A stretch of DNA of 64,000 nt from a virus. Each line of letters opens with the position of its first letter. Positions within the stretch are counted from its first letter, which is position 1. A program made the position numbers and the translations under genes. The notes beneath the pieces were generated by a model, which ran no database searches, was not told the origin of the DNA, and saw nothing but the letters and a program-made list of their open reading frames with translations. The DNA lies in UHGV virus genome UHGV-1366828; one strand, 5' to 3'. This document shows positions 4,708 through 63,383 of the stretch, in pieces.

Positions 4708-7296
4708 TTAATTGGAAGTGGTAAAGGTTAAAGTATTGTCACCTGTAACTCTTGTTAGCGAAAGAATTGTTCTGTAACCACTTGCATCTACAATATCTTG
4801 TTGCTTTGTTATTACATACAATCCGCTAGACACGTGACGTTGACCATAGAATAAGGAGTTTATTCTAACATAGCTCATTAACATAGCAGGACGTAACAGA
4901 CCTTTAAGTGTTAACTTCGCTTTGACAGGGAATTGTGTCATCTGTGTCCACCAAGTTTTCTGTGCCTGCGTAGTTTTATGATATCTGCTAGAAGTTGTTG
5001 AGTTAGGTGAGTATTCCGTTGTAACATTTCCTGCGTTGTCTATGTTGTATACATAATCTTCTGTAGGAATCTGTTGAGAATATTTGTATAGTAGACTCCA
5101 CGAATCATCATTTTCTATCTGGAAATTCATAACATAGTTACTTGGTGTGTCTCCTACATATCCGGAATATCCAACATCTACTTCATATACATCAGAGCCA
5201 CTTAACGATTCCGCAGAAGCGTCTGCTGTAACTTTTACAACTCTAAAGTATGGTCCATTGTATTCGTTTGTTATATCATCAACAATGGTTAAGTGATATG
5301 TAGATTTTCCTAGAGACGTAGTTTGGTCACCAGAGGGGGACATTTCCGATACAAGATAGTTTAGATATGTTATCGGGCTCATTCCCTCTTTAGGTTCTAG
5401 ATGTGTCTCTCTGTCGTCACCAGCTATAAGTCTTCTAGCAATGGTCTTATTCTTCATTCCAGTGAAGACTTGTCGCAAGCCATATTTTTCAGAGAACAAG
5501 ATTTCAATTATCTTGTCGCTGGGCTTACAAACAACTCCAGGGAAGTTATAAGAACGAGATGCTAACTGTAAAGCATTGCTAGTACAGAACAGAGTATATG
5601 TTATTCTCGAAGAAGAAAAATCAATGTTTGAAGTCAGTTTAGTTATGATAGCTTCTTCTTCTCTGAATATGAAGGATGGCGAGCTGTAATCACCATAACT
5701 TATTTTTATTTTACCGTAGCCAACACTACTAAATATCTTGTCCAGTAGATTTGGGTCTTGACCAGGTTCAATCTGATATACCATGTTGATTGTGTACTGA
5801 TTTACTGTACCGTTTACTTTTACTATATTGATACTTTGCATATAGTTAGGATAATCAACCCTGACAGTATTTTCAGACTTTCTATATTTATATGTACCAA
5901 ATGTGTAGTTTCCTATTTGTAAAGTGATAAACGGACTTTCAACAAATGTTCCTACACTCAGTAGTCCTGTAGAACGCTGTGTAGAAATGTTTGTAGGAGT
6001 TTCATTTATTGTAACTCTTCTCACAACTTCTGCTTCGTCTACGGGACCAGCACTTCTTAATCTACGCTGTGCTTCAACATATTCTGCATAAGAGGAGTAT
6101 TTTTTATTTAAATCAGTGTCATTATCAAATTGTTGTTTGCTAATAATGTTAGAGATTGTTTTCTTCCAGTTGTCAATGGTTCCGCTTATTGCGTTGCCTA
6201 ATTTATTAACACCTTCATTGAAAGCATTTTCAACGGAAGAGCCTGTTGACTCGGAATTTTCGGGTCCTATAACTCCTGTAGCTGCATCTCTGTAACGAAG
6301 AACAACTTGCCAAGAACATTCTCTGTAATAATTTCTAGTTGCTATACCGGTTGGAGTACACTCGACCATTCTACCATTTCCAATAAACATTGCAGTATGT
6401 CCGTTAGCTCCTGCACCAGATGTGCCCGTAGCATTCCAGACAAGGACGTCTCCGGCTCGCATTCCGGTTCCGTTATCAATGTTTACCATGGAACGAACAT
6501 CGGTGAACCCGTTCGCTACAAAACAACGTTTCATGTCGCCTGTATAAGAAGCGCCTGTTTGAACGCCTGCTTTGTTCCATGCAGAAATAATAAAAGCAGA
6601 ACAGTCATATGAGGTGGGTCCCCATCTATTTGTCATGCTGTACGTATAACCTTTATTGCACTGAGCAACTGCCCACTGGATTGCTTTGTCTGTTGCAGTG
6701 GGTTGACTTGTTCCGTATAATGAATTTGTTGAAGATGTATAAGGAGCAGTGTACCCACTGTACTTGTTATAGAAAGCATACGCATGAGATCTACGAACAT
6801 CATAATTATAAACAGCAGGACGTTCATATTGCTCAAGGACTAAGTCACAAGCAGCACGAACGTCCGTAGCTCTCTTTAATTGATTTCCCCAAGATGCATT
6901 ACTAAAGGCATTGTCAGCAAAGGTTAACTGTGTGTCAAGATTTCCAACTGAAGTACCACGTTGTTTTGCAAGCTCATAAAGGTCTCTTTTATATGTCCAC
7001 CAAGTCCATTGAGCAAGTCCGTATCCTATAGAATCGTGAACAAATTTATCTTTGGAGTATGCTCCACTATCTACCTGTTGAGTATAGTCAGCATCAGACC
7101 AACCATATCCGTTTTGAACATTGTTTGCAATAAGTGCACTTTCTGCTTGGAAGTTGCCCATTATACCGGCGATGCCTTCAGAGCTGTACCCTTTAGACCG
7201 GAAAAATGACCATATCTGTTGTTCAACTGTTTGATTTGTTCTGTTTATAGCGTTAGCTCTTAGTCCGCTGCCCTCAATGTCTTGATATACTTGCAT
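4708..7296 (-). CDS. tail-associated peptidoglycan hydrolase (lysozyme-like domain + NlpC/P60/CHAP-like cysteine peptidase domain + C-terminal structural region)
   Basis: 862 aa. N-terminal 'GIAGIMGNFQAESAL...GYGLAQWT' matches the lysozyme-like motif also present in the endolysin at 48510..50048. 'YDCSAFIISAWNKAG...GHTAMFIGNG' is Cys/His peptidase-like. Located directly downstream of the tape measure/baseplate genes. Confidence 0.7.
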   Translation of the reverse strand: MQVYQDIEGSGLRANAINRTNQTVEQQIWSFFRSKGYSSEGIAGIMGNFQAESALIANNVQNGYGWSDADYTQQVDSGAYSKDKFVHDSIGYGLAQWTWWTYKRDLYELAKQRGTSVGNLDTQLTFADNAFSNASWGNQLKRATDVRAACDLVLEQYERPAVYNYDVRRSHAYAFYNKYSGYTAPYTSSTNSLYGTSQPTATDKAIQWAVAQCNKGYTYSMTNRWGPTSYDCSAFIISAWNKAGVQTGASYTGDMKRCFVANGFTDVRSMVNIDNGTGMRAGDVLVWNATGTSGAGANGHTAMFIGNGRMVECTPTGIATRNYYRECSWQVVLRYRDAATGVIGPENSESTGSSVENAFNEGVNKLGNAISGTIDNWKKTISNIISKQQFDNDTDLNKKYSSYAEYVEAQRRLRSAGPVDEAEVVRRVTINETPTNISTQRSTGLLSVGTFVESPFITLQIGNYTFGTYKYRKSENTVRVDYPNYMQSINIVKVNGTVNQYTINMVYQIEPGQDPNLLDKIFSSVGYGKIKISYGDYSSPSFIFREEEAIITKLTSNIDFSSSRITYTLFCTSNALQLASRSYNFPGVVCKPSDKIIEILFSEKYGLRQVFTGMKNKTIARRLIAGDDRETHLEPKEGMSPITYLNYLVSEMSPSGDQTTSLGKSTYHLTIVDDITNEYNGPYFRVVKVTADASAESLSGSDVYEVDVGYSGYVGDTPSNYVMNFQIENDDSWSLLYKYSQQIPTEDYVYNIDNAGNVTTEYSPNSTTSSRYHKTTQAQKTWWTQMTQFPVKAKLTLKGLLRPAMLMSYVRINSLFYGQRHVSSGLYVITKQQDIVDASGYRTILSLTRVTGDNTLTFTTSN

Positions 7297-38833: not shown

Positions 38834-40753
38834 TTATAGGTTTGCTGTGTTTGTCATGTCAATTCCTAGATCTGCGGGAGAAGGTAGAGGAGCAATAGTT
38901 TCTTCCTCTGCGGGAGCAGGAGGCATTTCATCAGCAGAATCTTCAGTAGGAACAGGAAGTTCTACATCTCCTGCGTGTCCTCCGGATCGAGGCATTCTAA
39001 CATTTACATCAATGTCCCTGTCATCAGGTTCGTTATTTTCTTCTTCTGCCAGTGCTCCTTCTTCTTCCATTTTATCAATTTCTTCTTGAATGACATTTAT
39101 TACTTCTGGATTATCAATAATCTCAGCAAGTAAGATCTTAAGAATACGAAGCCTCTGAGACGGGTCCTCTACATCAGACAGTAGGTTCATAACATCTTGT
39201 GTAATTCCTACCTTTGATGACAGATTGTCTCGTCTATCAATTTCTTCTTGAGTTGTCGGAGGTTGCATCTTGATAGTGAATTTGTTTACATAAGAAACTA
39301 GTCCTTTATCAAGAAGCAGAAGATTAATCAGGTCAGTAACTAACTGAATAAGTGTGTTCTGAATACGTTTAATAGTTTTTGCGTATCTAGCAGAAATCAG
39401 TGACAGAGAAGCTCCGCCATTGAAGCCGGCTCCGTCCTCAGTGTCTCCCATATACTGTTTCGGAATTTTTAATCCGCCGAAAAGTTTATTCTTAAAGTAG
39501 TCTATGTCAGTAAGACCCTTTACATCAACGTCTCCGCCGATTTGCTGAGTGGATATGCTTCCTATTCCGTTGTGCATCGGAACGTATATACAGTTTTCCA
39601 TTGGTCCTGGATTTGTATACTCGGACATAATATTACCAGTGTCAAGAGACGCTTTTCGTTCAAATAGCGCCTTTATGCCCATCATATGTTTTCCAACATT
39701 CTCTTGTGGCATATCGCCTACTTCAACATTGATAACTCTTAATATAGAACTCTTAGTAAGGCGATTCAGAAGTAGTGAGTTCTCAAGTAGTGTAAGAGTT
39801 CTCCATAGTTTGTATACAGAGTATAGAATAGATTGTCCGTGTCGCACAGTATAACTTAACTTATTTGTGTCATCGGAGGTGTTCATATCGTTATTGAGAA
39901 AGATGTCTACTAATTCAGGAAAACGTTGAAAATCATCTTCTAAAGAGGCGTGAACAAAGGCAGTTGCATCGTACAAGGTTACATCAGAACGATTAAACCG
40001 ATATCTCCAAGAAGGAATATCAATTGAAGATTGCTTCTGTTGTAGACCCGATCTAACAGGCGCTTTGATGTAGGCATATGTTTTGCCGAATTTAGTTAAC
40101 TCAAACATTTCAGCGGGATTAGACACCATCTCTACGTATTGAGCATAACGGTCATCTTTTGAATTAGCGTGTACCATAACTGATTCGTCTAGTTTAGAGT
40201 TTTCTCTGTTTTCGTGAATCTTTTCCAGTTCTTCTTTAAGATACTTTTTCTTGTCGGAAACATCGTCGGAATTGAATAACCCGTCTTCTATATCAGAGTT
40301 ACGGTACATACGAAGATAAACGTCCCCGTACTTACACAAACAGTAAGCCCATTTAAAGATGTTCTTGTCCACATTCAAAACATCTAACAGATATGTTATA
40401 TACTTTAAAACATCTTCGTCGTCTGATTGGCAACAAACAATGCGACCATTCTCGGAAAGCTCTGTTGAATCTTCTGTGTATATTTCAAGTGCAGAAGCTA
40501 TCGTAGTGTCTTCACACATAGTGTCAATGACTTCATAAAGAAGTTCTCTGTTCTGTGAAACTTGAGTAAAGGATTCTAACTTACTGATGTCCATCATACT
40601 GGACTTAACACCATTTATCAGAGCATCATAAAACTCTCCGTCTGTGTCTATGCCAATATTTCTTTTCGGAGTAGGTACGGGGTTTAATTTTGTTCCGTAC
40701 AAATCCGTTGCATCAGCAAATACAGACTCACTATTTTTTAAATCGTTTTCCAT
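38834..40753 (-). CDS. portal protein (putative)
   Basis: 639 aa; immediately downstream of the terminase large subunit gene; acidic C-terminal tail; size typical of portals. Confidence 0.5.
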   Translation of the reverse strand: MENDLKNSESVFADATDLYGTKLNPVPTPKRNIGIDTDGEFYDALINGVKSSMMDISKLESFTQVSQNRELLYEVIDTMCEDTTIASALEIYTEDSTELSENGRIVCCQSDDEDVLKYITYLLDVLNVDKNIFKWAYCLCKYGDVYLRMYRNSDIEDGLFNSDDVSDKKKYLKEELEKIHENRENSKLDESVMVHANSKDDRYAQYVEMVSNPAEMFELTKFGKTYAYIKAPVRSGLQQKQSSIDIPSWRYRFNRSDVTLYDATAFVHASLEDDFQRFPELVDIFLNNDMNTSDDTNKLSYTVRHGQSILYSVYKLWRTLTLLENSLLLNRLTKSSILRVINVEVGDMPQENVGKHMMGIKALFERKASLDTGNIMSEYTNPGPMENCIYVPMHNGIGSISTQQIGGDVDVKGLTDIDYFKNKLFGGLKIPKQYMGDTEDGAGFNGGASLSLISARYAKTIKRIQNTLIQLVTDLINLLLLDKGLVSYVNKFTIKMQPPTTQEEIDRRDNLSSKVGITQDVMNLLSDVEDPSQRLRILKILLAEIIDNPEVINVIQEEIDKMEEEGALAEEENNEPDDRDIDVNVRMPRSGGHAGDVELPVPTEDSADEMPPAPAEEETIAPLPSPADLGIDMTNTANL

Positions 40754-40775: not shown

Positions 40776-42284
40776 TTATAAAACAATACCATTTGCAAGA
40801 TAGCTGGAATACAGTTCGCTTGCTTTCCCCATTCCAAAATCAAGAAATGTTGATTTATAGGGTTGTATTGAGTCTAATTTTTTAAGCTCTTCTTCAAAGT
40901 TTAATACAATTTGTGCTCGGTCCACTTCCGTTGTTGCTTGACTTACATCGATTGTTGTTTGTATCGTTTCTCCCCAGTCAAAAGAAAATTCTTCCGCATG
41001 TTGTGAAGCATTGTAGAGAGCTCCGCATACACCGTCTGCCGCGTCTTTTCTGCCCATGGGAGTGTGGTCAATTTTTCCGTTTCCGTCTTTTTCAAGATCA
41101 AGAAGTTCCTCTACAAGTTCCGTTGTAGGATACATATCAAATCGTTCTTCGTAGATTGCATTCTTAAACGTCAGATATGGTAAACACACCTTCTGTTCTC
41201 TATCTACTCGGTCAACAGATATAATTGAAGTGTTAAAATGTTCTCCCTTTAACACTTGTAATAAATCATAGGACTGGAAGGTATCTGCGGATACGCCTTT
41301 AATGTTAAATCCTTCTTGACGTAGCCAACGAATGAAGTTTCTGTTCTTTTCAAATGATACTTGACAACCTTTAGGAGCTTTTATACTTACATGAAATGCT
41401 AGAGTGTAATACAAATCTTTTGACGGGTCTTCTCCTGGCTTTGTTGGTTTCTTTCCGTTAATCCAAACTCCTCCGATACCTGTAGCGTCTCCTGACACTG
41501 ACATATCAAGGTGTATGTACAACGGACGAGATTTTAGTTTTGGATCTATACGAGTTTTATCAATAAAGTCTGAATATTGTGTCTTGTCATCTGCCCCGTC
41601 TCCGACAGATATGATTTCTTTTGTAAATAGATTTTTGCGTTTTTCATTTCTGACAGCCGCAATTCTATTTCCTGCAAAATATTTAGTTGTTCCTGAAGTA
41701 GAGATGCCTGCAATATCTGTCAAAGCAATGTTGATATCATCTATAAAGTTCTCGTAATATCCCATAGGGACATCTATGAGGGTGTATCCTCGGTCTCTAT
41801 ATGTTTGTAAATCTTCCTCGGTAGAATTCAGCGGAACTACTTCACTGTTAAGAAATTTATTACCTACAGCTACTTTGAATTTTACTGCGCTGTCTTTATC
41901 AGTTCTTATCACCCACTGAGGCTCATCAACTATGTATGTTGTTTTACTGTCGTTATTCTTTTTTCCTTCAATGAACGTTTCCATGTAAGACTGCTCAGTT
42001 CGTTTTGACGATGCAAGAATAAGCAATGTAGGATTGTGTTCTCCATGCATAAAACGAGATTGCATACGAGCACTTGCTGTGTTAACAAGGTCTTTTGCTT
42101 TCTTTTTCTGCATTTCTACGTCTTGTGTTGGTACAAAAGAGACCTCGTCGCAGAAACAGTTGTGAGAAACTACGTACGAGGAATTTGTTTTAACAAGAAA
42201 ATTATTGTACGGATTAGCATTTATAACATCATAGAATTTTTTTGGTGTAGTTAAAGTAATTCGGGTTATACTTTTTATTTTCAT
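40776..42284 (-). CDS. terL: terminase large subunit C-terminal part (nuclease domain) preceded by a ~42 aa C-intein fragment
   Basis: From ATG 42284 (AGAGGA upstream; the ORF track used TTG at 42335): 'MKIKSITRITLTTPKKFYDVINANPYNNFLVKTNSSYVVSHN|CFCDEVSF...'. Intein blocks F/G with terminal HN followed by Cys+1; downstream 'DMSVSGDATGIGGV' is a terminase nuclease-like motif. Confidence 0.7.
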   Translation of the reverse strand: MKIKSITRITLTTPKKFYDVINANPYNNFLVKTNSSYVVSHNCFCDEVSFVPTQDVEMQKKKAKDLVNTASARMQSRFMHGEHNPTLLILASSKRTEQSYMETFIEGKKNNDSKTTYIVDEPQWVIRTDKDSAVKFKVAVGNKFLNSEVVPLNSTEEDLQTYRDRGYTLIDVPMGYYENFIDDINIALTDIAGISTSGTTKYFAGNRIAAVRNEKRKNLFTKEIISVGDGADDKTQYSDFIDKTRIDPKLKSRPLYIHLDMSVSGDATGIGGVWINGKKPTKPGEDPSKDLYYTLAFHVSIKAPKGCQVSFEKNRNFIRWLRQEGFNIKGVSADTFQSYDLLQVLKGEHFNTSIISVDRVDREQKVCLPYLTFKNAIYEERFDMYPTTELVEELLDLEKDGNGKIDHTPMGRKDAADGVCGALYNASQHAEEFSFDWGETIQTTIDVSQATTEVDRAQIVLNFEEELKKLDSIQPYKSTFLDFGMGKASELYSSYLANGIVL

Positions 42285-42475
42285 TGATCGTATATGTCCT
42301 CTCGTAATCCAACATACTTTTCTTTCATCTTCCAACTTAGATTATCAATAACATACTGAAATTTATTTTTTATACAAGTACCGTATTCATTATAGAATAA
42401 TTTATAATTAACAGCTTGTGATAAGGCACATTGTCTCCTAAGTTTGCAAGTCTCAAGCTCCCTGTTAAATACTAT

Positions 42476-43414
42476 TTAATTAAATACAATATCTTCTAGT
42501 TCATCTTCCATTGTAAGGTCTTGCGCTTCTTTATACTCACCATTCTTAAGCATGAATCTATGATTCGGTGTACAGTGTATAACAGTGCCGTCTTCTAGTT
42601 CTATTTCATACTCCTCTGTAAAAACACCTGTTTCTTTAACAGTACACTCTTCGCTTAACGTCAGTGTATGTTCATCCGATATAGTCGGAACACGAATAAT
42701 TTTATTTTCTAAATCACGAATCTTGGCTTCCCCGTTTTCTGTCATGATCAGTGTATCGCCATCAAGACAAGAAAACACAGCTCTTCCGAGTATATGTCGA
42801 GGTAATGAACCATAAAGCAGGTCAATACCTTTTGGAGGAACCCAGACAATGTTTGTGCTACCTGACAAAGAACCATTCTTCATAAACCAAGGAGAATTTT
42901 GTAACAGCTCTTGACATTTTTGCCAGCCTACACCAGCAGCTGCATCCATTGTTATGTTGATGAATGCAAAAGTAATTTTATCAATAGGCTGTAACCCATA
43001 GTGTAAGTAAGGGTCTTTAAGGCACATCATTCTATATAATTGATAAAGGATGCAAAGAACAGCCATGAAAGATTTACCAATACCAATTGAACCAGTCAAT
43101 GCAAGAGTATTATATGCTGTGTCAACATTTGTAGGAAAAATCTTTTTCAGTGTATCAACCCAGTATGGATATACAGTTTTCCTGCCTTCAGCATCTATAA
43201 GACTCTTTCCTAGATAGTATTCGTTGTAAAGAAATGTTTCTATATCCACAGGAATTTCTTCGTAGTCTTGATATACCAAATCTTGATAAACATCGGAAGA
43301 CCCCGACTGTGAATACTGTTTTAGTATTTCAATGGCAACTTTCTTTTCATCCTCTGTTAGGTTGTTTAGTTCTTTCTGAATGTCTGAACTTATAAAACTT
43401 AAAGTGTCAGGCAC
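42476..43414 (-). CDS. terL: terminase large subunit N-terminal ATPase part followed by a ~97 aa N-intein fragment
   Basis: 312 aa; Walker A 'LTGSIGIGKSFMA'; extein ends '...GRAVFS' then 'CLDGDTLIMTENGEAKIRDL...HCTPNHRFM...IVFN*' (intein blocks A/B). Joining the exteins gives 'AVFS-CFCDE', a Walker B hhhhDE motif. Confidence 0.7.
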   Translation of the reverse strand: MPDTLSFISSDIQKELNNLTEDEKKVAIEILKQYSQSGSSDVYQDLVYQDYEEIPVDIETFLYNEYYLGKSLIDAEGRKTVYPYWVDTLKKIFPTNVDTAYNTLALTGSIGIGKSFMAVLCILYQLYRMMCLKDPYLHYGLQPIDKITFAFINITMDAAAGVGWQKCQELLQNSPWFMKNGSLSGSTNIVWVPPKGIDLLYGSLPRHILGRAVFSCLDGDTLIMTENGEAKIRDLENKIIRVPTISDEHTLTLSEECTVKETGVFTEEYEIELEDGTVIHCTPNHRFMLKNGEYKEAQDLTMEDELEDIVFN

Positions 43415-60985: not shown

Positions 60986-61327
60986 TTATTTTTCTTTGTC
61001 TTCAAGAACCCAAATATCTCCACGACGTTCTATAACAGTATATTTTTCATAAACATCTTCCATGCCCACTGATTTATCAATCAAACACTCATATTGATTA
61101 TGTGCGTTTGCCTTCCTGTCCTTGTCCATATTAACTCCAACAACAATTGAAAGTGCAAGGAGTGTGACAGTAAATATTCCATATAAAACACATTGTTTAG
61201 TGTCAGTAGATAGCAGCAGATTTACTGTGTTTACAATTGCCCCTATCATTAGAAAAATTAAGGCTACAAGTAACAGTGTAGAATTTTCTGACACTTCCGT
61301 AACATTAAGAATTGTTATTCCGTCCAT
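60986..61327 (-). CDS. membrane protein (two TM helices)
   Basis: Start at internal ATG 61327 (AAGGAG 12 nt upstream) rather than 61435; 'LLLVALIFLMIGAIV' and 'VLYGIFTVTLLALSIVVGV'. Confidence 0.4.
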   Translation of the reverse strand: MDGITILNVTEVSENSTLLLVALIFLMIGAIVNTVNLLLSTDTKQCVLYGIFTVTLLALSIVVGVNMDKDRKANAHNQYECLIDKSVGMEDVYEKYTVIERRGDIWVLEDKEK

Positions 61328-61331
61328 ACCG

Positions 61332-61583
61332 TTACTTCGCTCCTTTATACCATCGAATAGCTTTGAACATAATTTCTGAAAATGAATAACAAACTCCGAA
61401 TATATTGCCTTCGCTGTCATTTGCTGACCAAACAAACATCGAAGGCTTTACATATTGAATTGTTATGTTGTTATGAGAAGTGCTCTCTGTTCTGTAGACA
61501 CGTATTCTGTTTGGCTCTCTAGTGGTGCACCAGGGAATATTACTCTTCGTAAGCAGGCACGAAAGAGAATCAAGATTACCCAT
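61332..61583 (-). CDS. hypothetical protein
   Basis: 83 aa ORF abutting the dUTPase gene. Confidence 0.3.
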   Translation of the reverse strand: MGNLDSLSCLLTKSNIPWCTTREPNRIRVYRTESTSHNNITIQYVKPSMFVWSANDSEGNIFGVCYSFSEIMFKAIRWYKGAK

Positions 61584-61585
61584 AT

Positions 61586-62326
61586 TTAAACCCCCGAGCT
61601 TCCAAAACCACCGGCACCTCGGTCAGTGTCATCGAGATTGTCTACTTCAATAAGCTCTGTTGTGATACAAGGAAGGATTGTAAACTGAGCAATACGGTCA
61701 CCATGATGAATGACCTGAGGCTCGTCACTGTCGTTCCGAAGAACAACCATCCATTCCCCTCGATAGTCACAGTCAATTATTCCGGTACTATTTGCAAGAC
61801 GAAGGCCTCGCTTACAGCCCATGCCGCTACGAGCATAAACAGCAGCAAAATATCCCTTCGGAATAGCTGTTGTAAAACCAGTGTGAAAAGAGAAAGAGCC
61901 ATGAGGAGGAACAGTTTCAGCAAGAGCTGCACTAGAACCCAGGTCAGCGTAAATGTCAAAACACGCATCTGTTTCATGCGCCTTTGTGGGAATTGTTGCT
62001 GTATTTGAACACTTCTTAATATGCATACTAACAAGAGGAGACACTTCATTTGTTATGTACTTAGTTATATATGACATAAACCCTGTTTCCAGATCGTCTA
62101 CAGCATCTTCATTCTTGTTAGCCTGATATCTCTTTCGATATTCAGCAACTGTGCAATGATTTGCGCTAGAATACTGTTCCGGAAGTACTGCACCATCAAA
62201 CTCCCAGTTACAGTTATCACAGATCCAAAAAGAATCCAACGTAGGTTCTCCACAGATAGGACACTTAACAATAGTGTACCCATACTTCTGAAATTCTTCA
62301 GTTTTCTTCAGCTCTTCAACTGTCAT
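61586..62326 (-). CDS. dut: dUTP diphosphatase with N-terminal zinc-ribbon extension
   Basis: 246 aa; N-terminal 'CPICGEP...CDNCNW'; dUTPase motifs 'ACFDIYAD', 'RSG', 'GIIDCDYRGEWMVVLRN', 'RIAQ', C-terminal 'RGAGGFGSSG'. Confidence 0.85.
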   Translation of the reverse strand: MTVEELKKTEEFQKYGYTIVKCPICGEPTLDSFWICDNCNWEFDGAVLPEQYSSANHCTVAEYRKRYQANKNEDAVDDLETGFMSYITKYITNEVSPLVSMHIKKCSNTATIPTKAHETDACFDIYADLGSSAALAETVPPHGSFSFHTGFTTAIPKGYFAAVYARSGMGCKRGLRLANSTGIIDCDYRGEWMVVLRNDSDEPQVIHHGDRIAQFTILPCITTELIEVDNLDDTDRGAGGFGSSGV

Positions 62327-63161: not shown

Positions 63162-63238
63162 TGGTACTCGGTACTGGGCTTGAACCAGCGACCCCATGCT
63201 TGTAAGGCATGTGCTCTAACCAGCTGAGCTAACCGAGT
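63162..63238 (-). tRNA. tRNA-Val (anticodon UAC), CCA encoded
   Basis: Minus strand ACTCGGT-TA-GCTC-AGCTGGTTA-GAGC-A-CATGC-CTTACAA-GCATG-GGGTC-GCTGG-TTCAAGC-CCAGT-ACCGAGT-A-CCA. Perfect 7 bp acceptor and 5 bp anticodon stem; T-stem 5 bp including one G-U; canonical D and T loops. Confidence 0.75.
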
Positions 63239-63296
63239 ATATTATCATTATATAGTAAAGTGGCAGATGAAATCAACACCCGCCACTTATTTTGTT

Positions 63297-63383
63297 TGGT
63301 GGGCCGAGCTGGAATCGAACCAGCCGAGCATTTAAGCACCTGATTTACAGTCAGGTCCGCTACCTTCTACGGAATACCGGCCC
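63297..63383 (-). tRNA. type II (long variable arm) tRNA, most likely tRNA-Tyr (anticodon GUA), CCA encoded
   Basis: Minus strand GGGCCGG...CCTGA-CTGTAAA-TCAGG-(14 nt variable arm)-GCTGG-TTCGATT-CCAGC-TCGGCCC-A-CCA. Anticodon and T arms perfect; D-arm register ambiguous by eye. Confidence 0.6.

Follow-up and report, generated by a model that had tools for sequence, protein, structure and literature searches.

A probable naturally split mini-intein in the Walker B strand of a phage large terminase

In the virus genome UHGV-1366828, analyzed here over a stretch of 64,000 nucleotides (nt) that we call the window, the gene for the large terminase (TerL) is divided over two neighboring open reading frames (ORFs) on the minus strand, at 40776..43414. 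The insert that divides it is very probably a naturally split class 1 mini-intein with a canonical DnaE-type break, lying in the Walker B strand of TerL. The upstream frame (N ORF) encodes the first part of TerL (N-extein) joined to the N-terminal intein half (IntN), and the downstream frame (C ORF) encodes the C-terminal intein half (IntC) joined to the remainder of TerL (C-extein); the halves lie on separate ORFs, in different reading frames, each fused to one extein part (Table 1). An earlier note on this DNA had proposed a terminase split at Walker B by a split mini-intein, and the elements that it named are present at these positions.

Results

The interrupted gene and the exact insertion site

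Uninterrupted homologues of 667–692 amino acids (aa) are numerous in the database, and some of the intein-less alleles (proteins P0123–P0132 and IMG/VR loci L002–L006) are 98–99% identical to the window exteins. The empty alleles (P0123/P0127; L002–L006) read GRAVFSVFCDE, within ...HIIGRAVFSVFCDEVSF..., and are exactly 675 aa long (215+460), which places the insert between Ser215 and residue 216. The N-extein is 97% identical to the first 215 aa of the intein-less 675-aa alleles, and the C-extein is 98–99% identical to intein-less alleles. The insert is in frame, its boundaries are exact to the residue, and it is absent from orthologues that are 98–99% identical. Residue 216 is Val in the empty alleles and Cys in the window, matching the requirement of an intein. 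The earlier note had read the spliced junction AVFS-CFCDE as a restored Walker B motif; this reading is confirmed by the AVFS-V-FCDE of the empty alleles, in which the Asp-Glu pair (D219, E220) begins three residues after the insertion and is invariant across 58 intein-less sequences.

Sequence profiles of TerL match the window exteins weakly, and a sequence search of the PDB with the intein-less TerL gave no match, so that a fold search was needed. In an AlphaFold model of the intein-less allele P0123, made with 58 homologues (mean predicted local distance difference test (pLDDT) score 78.7), residues 212–220 (AVFSVFCDE) lie on one β-strand. Searched against the PDB with Foldseek, the model matched the HK97 large terminase (E=1.6e-15), T4 gp17 (about 1e-11) and the G20c nuclease domain (4.4e-5), with further matches to the phiV-1 terminase, D6E TerL and the P74-26 ATPase domain. 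Based on these fold matches and on the position of Walker B, the C ORF carries not only the nuclease domain but also the catalytic Asp-Glu pair and the remaining ATPase domain. The earlier note had assigned to it the nuclease domain alone, a description that needs widening; the IntC of about 42 aa that ends in ...YVVSHN, begins about 190 nt downstream and is followed by Cys+1 stands as described.

A portal gene lies directly downstream; this neighbor places the split gene in the packaging module, as its terminase. Taken together, the model and the gene order support the assignment of the host gene to the large terminases, proteins with an ASCE ATPase bearing Walker A and B motifs and an RNase H-like nuclease. 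A crAss-like origin of the window, with a TerL intein already on record, was ruled out by a portal and a protease of T4 type and by the nearest cultured relatives, which are myoviruses of Bacillus, Listeria and Streptococcus at about 37–40% identity. When 50,697 phage records were searched with the locus by megablast, no match was returned, and relatives were found by protein-level search only.

The insert as a class 1 intein with a DnaE-type break

IntN, CLDGDTLIMTENG...IHCTPNHRFM...EDIVFN, runs on directly from the N-extein (...GRAVFS) and is matched by the NCBIfam profile TIGR01445 (intein_Nterm) with 37.4–39.7 bits against a cutoff of 24.5. A further match is to the intein part (DnaE-N split-intein region) of the cyanobacterial entry PRK09532. 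The GSIGIGKS motif and the 37.4-bit match bear out what had been claimed for the N ORF (43414..42476), namely an ATPase N-domain with Walker A (GIGKS) followed by a 97-aa IntN. Read from the ATG at 42284, IntC is MKIKSITRITLTTPKKFYDVINANPYNNFLVKTNSSYVVSHN (42 aa), ending in ...YVVSHN. The hallmarks of an intein are in place: Cys1 in a block A context, block B with T67-P-N-H70, and blocks F and G with SHN directly before Cys+1. The break falls in the interval from block B/N4 to block F, the usual seat of endonuclease domains, and it is exactly here that relatives carry their endonuclease.

The fused halves align with the Npu DnaE structures across the junction, EDIVFN/MKIKSITR standing opposite VDNLPN/IKIATRK. 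A family profile (alignment A2), composed of the window copy, seven contiguous alleles of relatives and three other split pairs, matched NrdJ-1 (E=1e-11), Npu DnaE (1.5e-9) and many other solved inteins near full length. Contiguous mini-inteins of 141–160 aa occupy the same site in relatives (P0153, P0157, P0212 and others) and align with both halves, and one of them, P0153, passes Pfam PF14890 with 39.4 bits against a threshold of 35.8. As judged from the TIGR01445 match, the profile match at E=1e-11 and the residue-exact empty alleles, the resemblance to inteins is far beyond chance.

In common with the Npu and Ssp DnaE inteins, the window copy has its break between block B/N4 and block F, a Cys1, a terminal Asn and a Cys+1, and an acidic IntN paired with a basic IntC (net charges –17/+5 in the window, –12.2/+3.4 as family means and –11/+3 in Npu DnaE). 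Its 97+42 aa compare with 102+36 aa in DnaE, and the argument of the earlier note that the fragment sizes fit a natural split intein holds. The differences are the host, a phage terminase here and a cellular polymerase there, and the low identity (profile E=1.5e-9).

Table 1. Coordinates of the split terminase locus and of other features in the window
Feature	Position	Strand	Description
N-terminal precursor gene: TerL N-extein + IntN	42476..43414	–	312 aa, 35.6 kDa; GTG start, TAA stop
TerL N-extein	42770..43414	–	215 aa; last residues ...HILGRAVFS
Walker A / P-loop GSIGIGKS	43070..43093	–	G108, G111, G113, K114 and S115 invariant in 58 intein-less homologues
IntN (intein N-half)	42479..42769	–	97 aa; net charge –17; block B = C-T-P-N-H
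Cys1 of IntN	42767..42769	–	first codon after N-extein; context CLDGDT
TAA stop ending IntN	42476..42478	–	canonical split position
Spacer between intein halves	42285..42475	–	191 nt
Homing endonuclease C-terminal relic	42314..42424	–	37 codons, N ORF frame
Shine-Dalgarno-like GAGAGGA	42297..42303	–	12–13 nt 5' of C ORF start
C-terminal precursor gene: IntC + TerL C-extein	40776..42284	–	502 aa, 56.9 kDa
IntC (intein C-half)	42159..42284	–	42 aa; block F = FYDV...NNF, block G = VVSHN; net charge +5
Cys+1	42156..42158	–	first TerL residue after IntC
Cys+1 and Walker B end, CFCDE	42144..42158	–	junction after splicing AVFS/CFCDE; intein-less alleles AVFS-V-FCDE
TerL C-extein	40779..42158	–	460 aa; remaining ATPase domain + nuclease domain
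Stop of C ORF	40776..40778	–	
Portal gene	38834..40753	–	phrog_213, E=5.9e-32; orthologue PF07230 Portal_T4; 22 nt 3' of C ORF
Two tRNA genes	63162-63383	–	Val-TAC and Tyr-GTA; window end

The mechanical ORF list began the C ORF at TTG 42335, which we dropped in favor of ATG 42284. The latter is the likely start because it was also picked by the gene caller on an identical public contig, because it yields the 42-aa C-half with an M-K-I-K start that is found in 40 of 42 related proteins, and because GAGAGGA lies upstream. The public contig, ERZ27229772 k119_128280 from ENA (59.5 kb), encodes the same 312-aa protein and agrees with the window at every base over 6.9 kb.

Conservation of the split state

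The search with the N ORF returned 273 proteins. Of the best 120 cluster representatives among them, 75 (the N-type clusters) stop 83–116 aa after Cys1, at the same point as the window, and the search with the C ORF found 42 representatives that start with an IntC of roughly 42 aa. Identity to the window is 45–81% for IntN and 55–79% for IntC. Cys1 and His70 are present in 100% and Thr67 in 99% of 76 IntN clusters, with Thr6 also invariant; in IntC, Y18, D19, S40, H41, N42 and the adjoining Cys+1 are found in 42/42 clusters.

Ratios of nonsynonymous to synonymous substitution rates (dN/dS) are low throughout the locus: 0.019 for the N-extein against locus L083; 0.038 for IntN, 0.18 for IntC and 0.028 for the C-extein in codon comparisons with split relatives; and 0.032 for the spliced gene against an empty allele. 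These comparisons support a split that is genuine and kept by selection rather than a sequencing artefact. The earlier note's view of the split as natural holds up, with about 75 diverged clusters stopping at the same intein point and purifying selection acting on both halves.

Between the window and L083, the synonymous divergence dS is about 2.6 for IntN and 0.31 for the adjoining N-extein of the same contig pair (roughly eightfold), and L001 shares 98% identity with the window in its exteins and only 57% and 67% in its intein halves, from which it appears that inteins have been swapped among near-identical phages.

Spacer and endonuclease relic

According to the earlier note, no homing endonuclease lies between the halves. 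The 191-nt spacer indeed holds no intact gene, but it does contain a 37-codon relic of the C-terminus of a homing endonuclease, LSQAVNYKLFYNEYGTCIKNKFQYVIDNLSWKMKEKY, and relatives carry endonucleases at this place. The spacer also has no terminator and no Rfam match at E<=1, and its folding is unremarkable (z-score +0.43). The N ORF frame stays open for 64 codons past the TAA, up to a TGA at 42283..42281 that overlaps the ATG at 42284 as ATGA. The relic lies in this frame and is 49% identical, over its 37 aa, to the extreme C-terminus of P0042, a fusion of N-extein, IntN and a GIY-YIG endonuclease (E=1e-10 by pairwise blastp); P0095, P0026 and P0048 are further matches.

Among the relatives, IntN is fused in frame to a SegE-type GIY-YIG endonuclease in P0016, P0021, P0042 and P0067, and to an apparently HNH-type endonuclease, the motif being judged by eye, in P0048, P0095, P0098 and P0115. 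The GIY-YIG fusions of L039, L046 and L088 end right at the start of IntC, in L046 with the same ATGA overlap. In L001, a free-standing ORF of 382 aa with a weak NUMOD3 match fills the gap between the intein halves. Spacer lengths range from about 1–4 nt in L066, where an AAGGAGG inside the end of IntN just precedes the start of IntC, through 173 nt in L010 and L011 and 191 nt in the window, to about 1–1.2 kb in endonuclease-bearing loci and 60 kb in the Streptococcus phage GXN1.

Based on the relic and on the endonucleases of relatives, the window copy is a fractured gene minus its endonuclease: L001 has the free-standing endonuclease between the halves that is characteristic of fractured genes, and the window has the relic only. 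As the relatives indicate, a GIY-YIG or HNH homing endonuclease once stood at the break point, and its deletion left the 37 C-terminal codons and the ATGA overlap. Around the IntN stop (42455-42493, minus strand) there is an imperfect direct repeat, ATTGTATTTAAT TAA ATAGTATTTAAC, translated IVFN, stop, IVFN, which may be a scar of endonuclease removal or of the creation of the stop.

Other copies differ in what remains. The 173-nt spacer of L010 (4828-5000) translates to NYDEYIQNIIKERGQ followed by a stop, by its look the N-terminus of an HNH-type endonuclease. The contiguous mini-inteins (P0153, P0157, P0212 and others) share the insertion site and are 48–59% identical to the fused halves, differing in that they form one ORF. 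In P0153, the linker (residues about 300-330) reads NMYTNFITNIFISKGRNIKE and then MKIKSI, and by eye resembles the HNH-type N-terminus in P0095, P0098 and P0115, like an N-terminal relic of such an endonuclease. The sequences suggest re-fusion of split alleles as a possible source of contiguous ones, and an interconversion of the two states.

Split terminases in cultured phages

A tblastn search of GenBank phages turned up three isolates with this split, all at this site: Bacillus phage vB_BceM-HSE3, Streptococcus phage vB_SagM-GXN1 and Listeria phage LIS04. In HSE3, gp054 ('intein splicing region protein') ends in ...GKDVF/CLTGST...SYGS, gp055 is a 90-aa ORF, and gp056 reads MKVKSV...VVVHN/CAMLDEIEF...; the pieces of HSE3 and LIS04 already carry intein-related labels in GenBank. 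In GXN1 (PQ819873.1), the N gene lies at 61208..62146 and the IntC-TerL gene at about 122577-125183. A 130-kb contig binned with a fecal Lachnospiraceae metagenome-assembled genome has the split form too. HSE3, GXN1 and LIS04 form plaques, so that a phage can be viable with its terminase split like this; these plaque-forming phages are the strongest indirect support for trans-splicing.

In the 176-kb genome deposited for GXN1, a record with only 40 annotated features, about 60 kb separate the two halves, which are thus unlinked as in cyanobacterial dnaE. In LIS04 (Thornevirus; OQ999172.1, L085 about 1650-2830), an insertion of about 1.17 kb with the endonuclease gene LIS04_52 interrupts the N-part of TerL between ...SHGLG and RDIF-CLTG, four codons 5' of the intein site. 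Owing to this insertion, the N ORF annotated for LIS04 ends short of the intein, and the 56-aa 'Hint domain protein' of the record represents the IntN tail only. The insertion is probably an intron with a homing endonuclease, without Rfam support.

In L066, a GC-richer, strongly structured insertion of about 250 nt (5145-5391) lies four codons past the intein site, where it apparently separates the Asp codon of Walker B from the Glu codon (...SHN-CNLTD/EVNF...). Its fold has z=–4.3 (0/200 shuffles as stable), and it resembles a group I intron in its final G and in the U that closes the 5' exon; it has no Rfam match at E<=1. Four clusters (P0060, P0061, P0085 and P0106) end in a related CNFTDKEI followed by a stop, or in a shortened CNFTDK. 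The coding region for Walker B in this TerL family attracts further elements.

A second, contiguous intein is present in the TerL nuclease domain of P0149 (about 430-600; HSPSGIN/CFTGDT...FVHN/SKDQADAV) and of L088 (5234-5527), where it comes in addition to the split one. At the corresponding place in the 868-aa C ORF of GXN1 (L087), tblastn gives an intein-like match. Just 5' of the split terminase of HSE3, gp053 ('dCTP deaminase'; L084:620-1138) contains an apparent contiguous mini-intein (...KCLEANTEIY...CTRDHKF...GIYAHNC...).

Weighing the alternatives

Several observations weigh against a functional split intein in the window. The check by intein profiles and DnaE alignment that the earlier note had called for succeeded for IntN and for the fused halves, and failed elsewhere: IntC by itself has no profile match in Pfam or NCBIfam, which is unsurprising for a piece of only 42 residues, and the window halves score below the PF14890 gathering threshold (23.6 and 31.6 bits against 35.8). 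AlphaFold, given the fused halves as a single sequence without an alignment, returned a pLDDT of 34, and the Hint fold of the window copy therefore rests on its sequence. The gap of 12–13 nt between the Shine-Dalgarno-like motif and the C ORF start is rather far, at the long end of the range among the window's genes. Contig ERZ27229772 may itself be the source of the window and is not an independent confirmation of this exact copy. Finally, trans-splicing is inferred from family membership.

The two products might serve as a gene in pieces without splicing, the chains associating through the intein halves or directly to give a non-covalent terminase. We regard this as unlikely. PMC10448857 cites such a case in Aeromonas phage Aeh1, whose NrdA is split by a homing endonuclease and works in pieces, so a split essential gene can function as two peptides. 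Against it, the residues needed for the chemistry alone (Cys1, the block B Thr and His, the terminal His-Asn and Cys+1) are invariant or at 99% across the 76 and 42 clusters, Cys+1 replaces the Val of the empty allele exactly as a splicing intein needs, and a 139-aa Hint domain left in the Walker B strand would probably block ATPase catalysis. A decaying locus, in which a recent break of the intein has left a dead terminase and a phage that is defective or uses another terminase, is very unlikely: the extein halves show a dN/dS of 0.02–0.03 against both split and unsplit relatives, with the intein halves constrained too, and this arrangement is found again in about 75 clusters and in three isolated phages. 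In favor of decay, the spacer does consist of endonuclease debris, and the window is a metagenomic contig; the 64-kb window contains no second intein of the same family, and was not searched systematically for a second terminase gene.

The idea that the two ORFs are really one, through a sequencing or assembly error, recoding (readthrough with frameshift, ribosome hopping) or RNA splicing of an intron, is the most improbable of all and close to negligible. It draws on the N frame remaining open up to the start of the C ORF and on the contiguous alleles of relatives. The open frame, however, is explained by the endonuclease relic, ends in TGA and differs from the frame of IntC, and IntN stops at this very point in dozens of contigs that were assembled independently. 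The spacers of relatives extend from a few nt to 60 kb and have no shared sequence, so that no single recoding trick could join the halves in all of them. An intron or structured RNA in the window's spacer was ruled out by the missing Rfam match and terminator and by the unremarkable fold. Reassignment or suppression of a stop codon was also ruled out: TAA is an ordinary stop here, ending 37 of the 49 long minus-strand ORFs of the window, and no large ORFs fuse when TAG or TGA is read as a sense codon. The only tRNAs of the window are Val-TAC and Tyr-GTA, neither of them a suppressor. The other 12 of the 49 stops are TGA and none is TAG, with no sign of recoding; the non-use of TAG may reflect composition only (GC content 38.5%).

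Discussion

With a split class 1 intein as the preferred reading, we propose the following route to an active terminase, on the strength of family membership. The two genes would belong to one late operon and probably share one late transcript, with their products translated separately. TerL(1–215)-IntN (35.6 kDa) and IntC-TerL(216–675) (56.9 kDa) would bind through their opposite charges and fold into one Hint domain. Class 1 chemistry would then proceed from a thioester at Cys1 through transfer to Cys+1 and cyclization of Asn42 of IntC to an S-to-N shift. The expected products are a TerL of 675 aa and 76.4 kDa that reads AVFS-CFCDE, free IntN (11.2 kDa) and free IntC (4.9 kDa). Splicing would leave Cys for Val at residue 216 as its sole difference from the intein-less alleles, and the predicted tryptic junction peptide is AVFSCFCDEVSFVPTQDVEMQK. 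Packaging should depend on splicing, since before the reaction a break in the Walker B strand divides the ATPase core.

A more far-reaching possibility, which we consider doubtful, is that the split is not just the debris of a selfish element and has been domesticated as a post-translational gate on packaging, with active TerL appearing only once both halves accumulate and conditions (e.g. redox) allow the Cys1/Cys+1 chemistry; the occupied Walker B site could in addition confer immunity to the homing endonucleases of co-infecting relatives. The persistence of endonuclease-free copies (window, L010, L066), the ribosome-binding site inside the IntN end of L066 and the distance of 60 kb between the GXN1 halves are compatible with domestication and do not prove it.

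Among the closest known systems are the 'fractured genes' of phage metagenomes (gp41-1, NrdJ-1, IMPDH-1), in which split inteins have an endonuclease between the halves (Dassa et al. 2009, PMC2677866). Phage origin and canonical break are shared, NrdJ-1 is the best solved match (E=1e-11), and relatives of the window (L001, L039, L046, L088) have an endonuclease between the halves. The window differs in keeping a 37-codon relic only, several relatives differ in having the endonuclease fused to IntN, and TerL Walker B is not among the host genes and sites described. In DnaE the halves are unlinked, whereas those of the window are adjacent and those of GXN1 are 60 kb apart.

Terminases are common intein hosts (PMC4760082). 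One naturally split intein in the large terminase of a myovirus-like phage, the GOS terminase intein, has an unusual break with a 122-residue C-part that contains all motifs except N1 (PMC2677866). The likeness, drawn from description, ends at the break: the halves of 97 and 42 aa in the window are canonical, unlike the very short N-part and long C-part of an atypical split. AceL-TerL is a later example beside the GOS intein. The TerL1-e intein of mycobacteriophages shares the Walker B site of the large terminase (Kelley et al. 2016, PMC5050341). We set it apart by description: it belongs to an actinobacteriophage Terminase_1 and is taken as contiguous, the word 'split' being absent from PMC5050341. 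In a literature search that left most subscription journals outside, no description turned up of this family or of a canonically split intein in a terminase, the Walker B site of TerL included. The locus is undescribed and not unprecedented, a further example of naturally split phage inteins and not a new principle.

The finding is of moderate relevance to intein evolution, phage assembly and protein engineering. If trans-splicing takes place as proposed, an essential step of virion assembly depends on it in a widespread clade of phages of roughly 120–220 kb, comprising gut-associated contigs and cultured isolates on Bacillus, Listeria and Streptococcus; because cultured members exist, the prediction is directly testable. 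Many diverged split inteins with a canonical break and Cys1/Cys+1 are candidate orthogonal ligation tools, of possible use in protein engineering. At one site, the family displays many states, from empty alleles and contiguous mini-inteins through IntN-endonuclease fusions, free-standing endonucleases and endonuclease relics to minimal spacers and unlinked halves, which makes this TerL intein family a good natural system for the study of how split inteins arise and revert.

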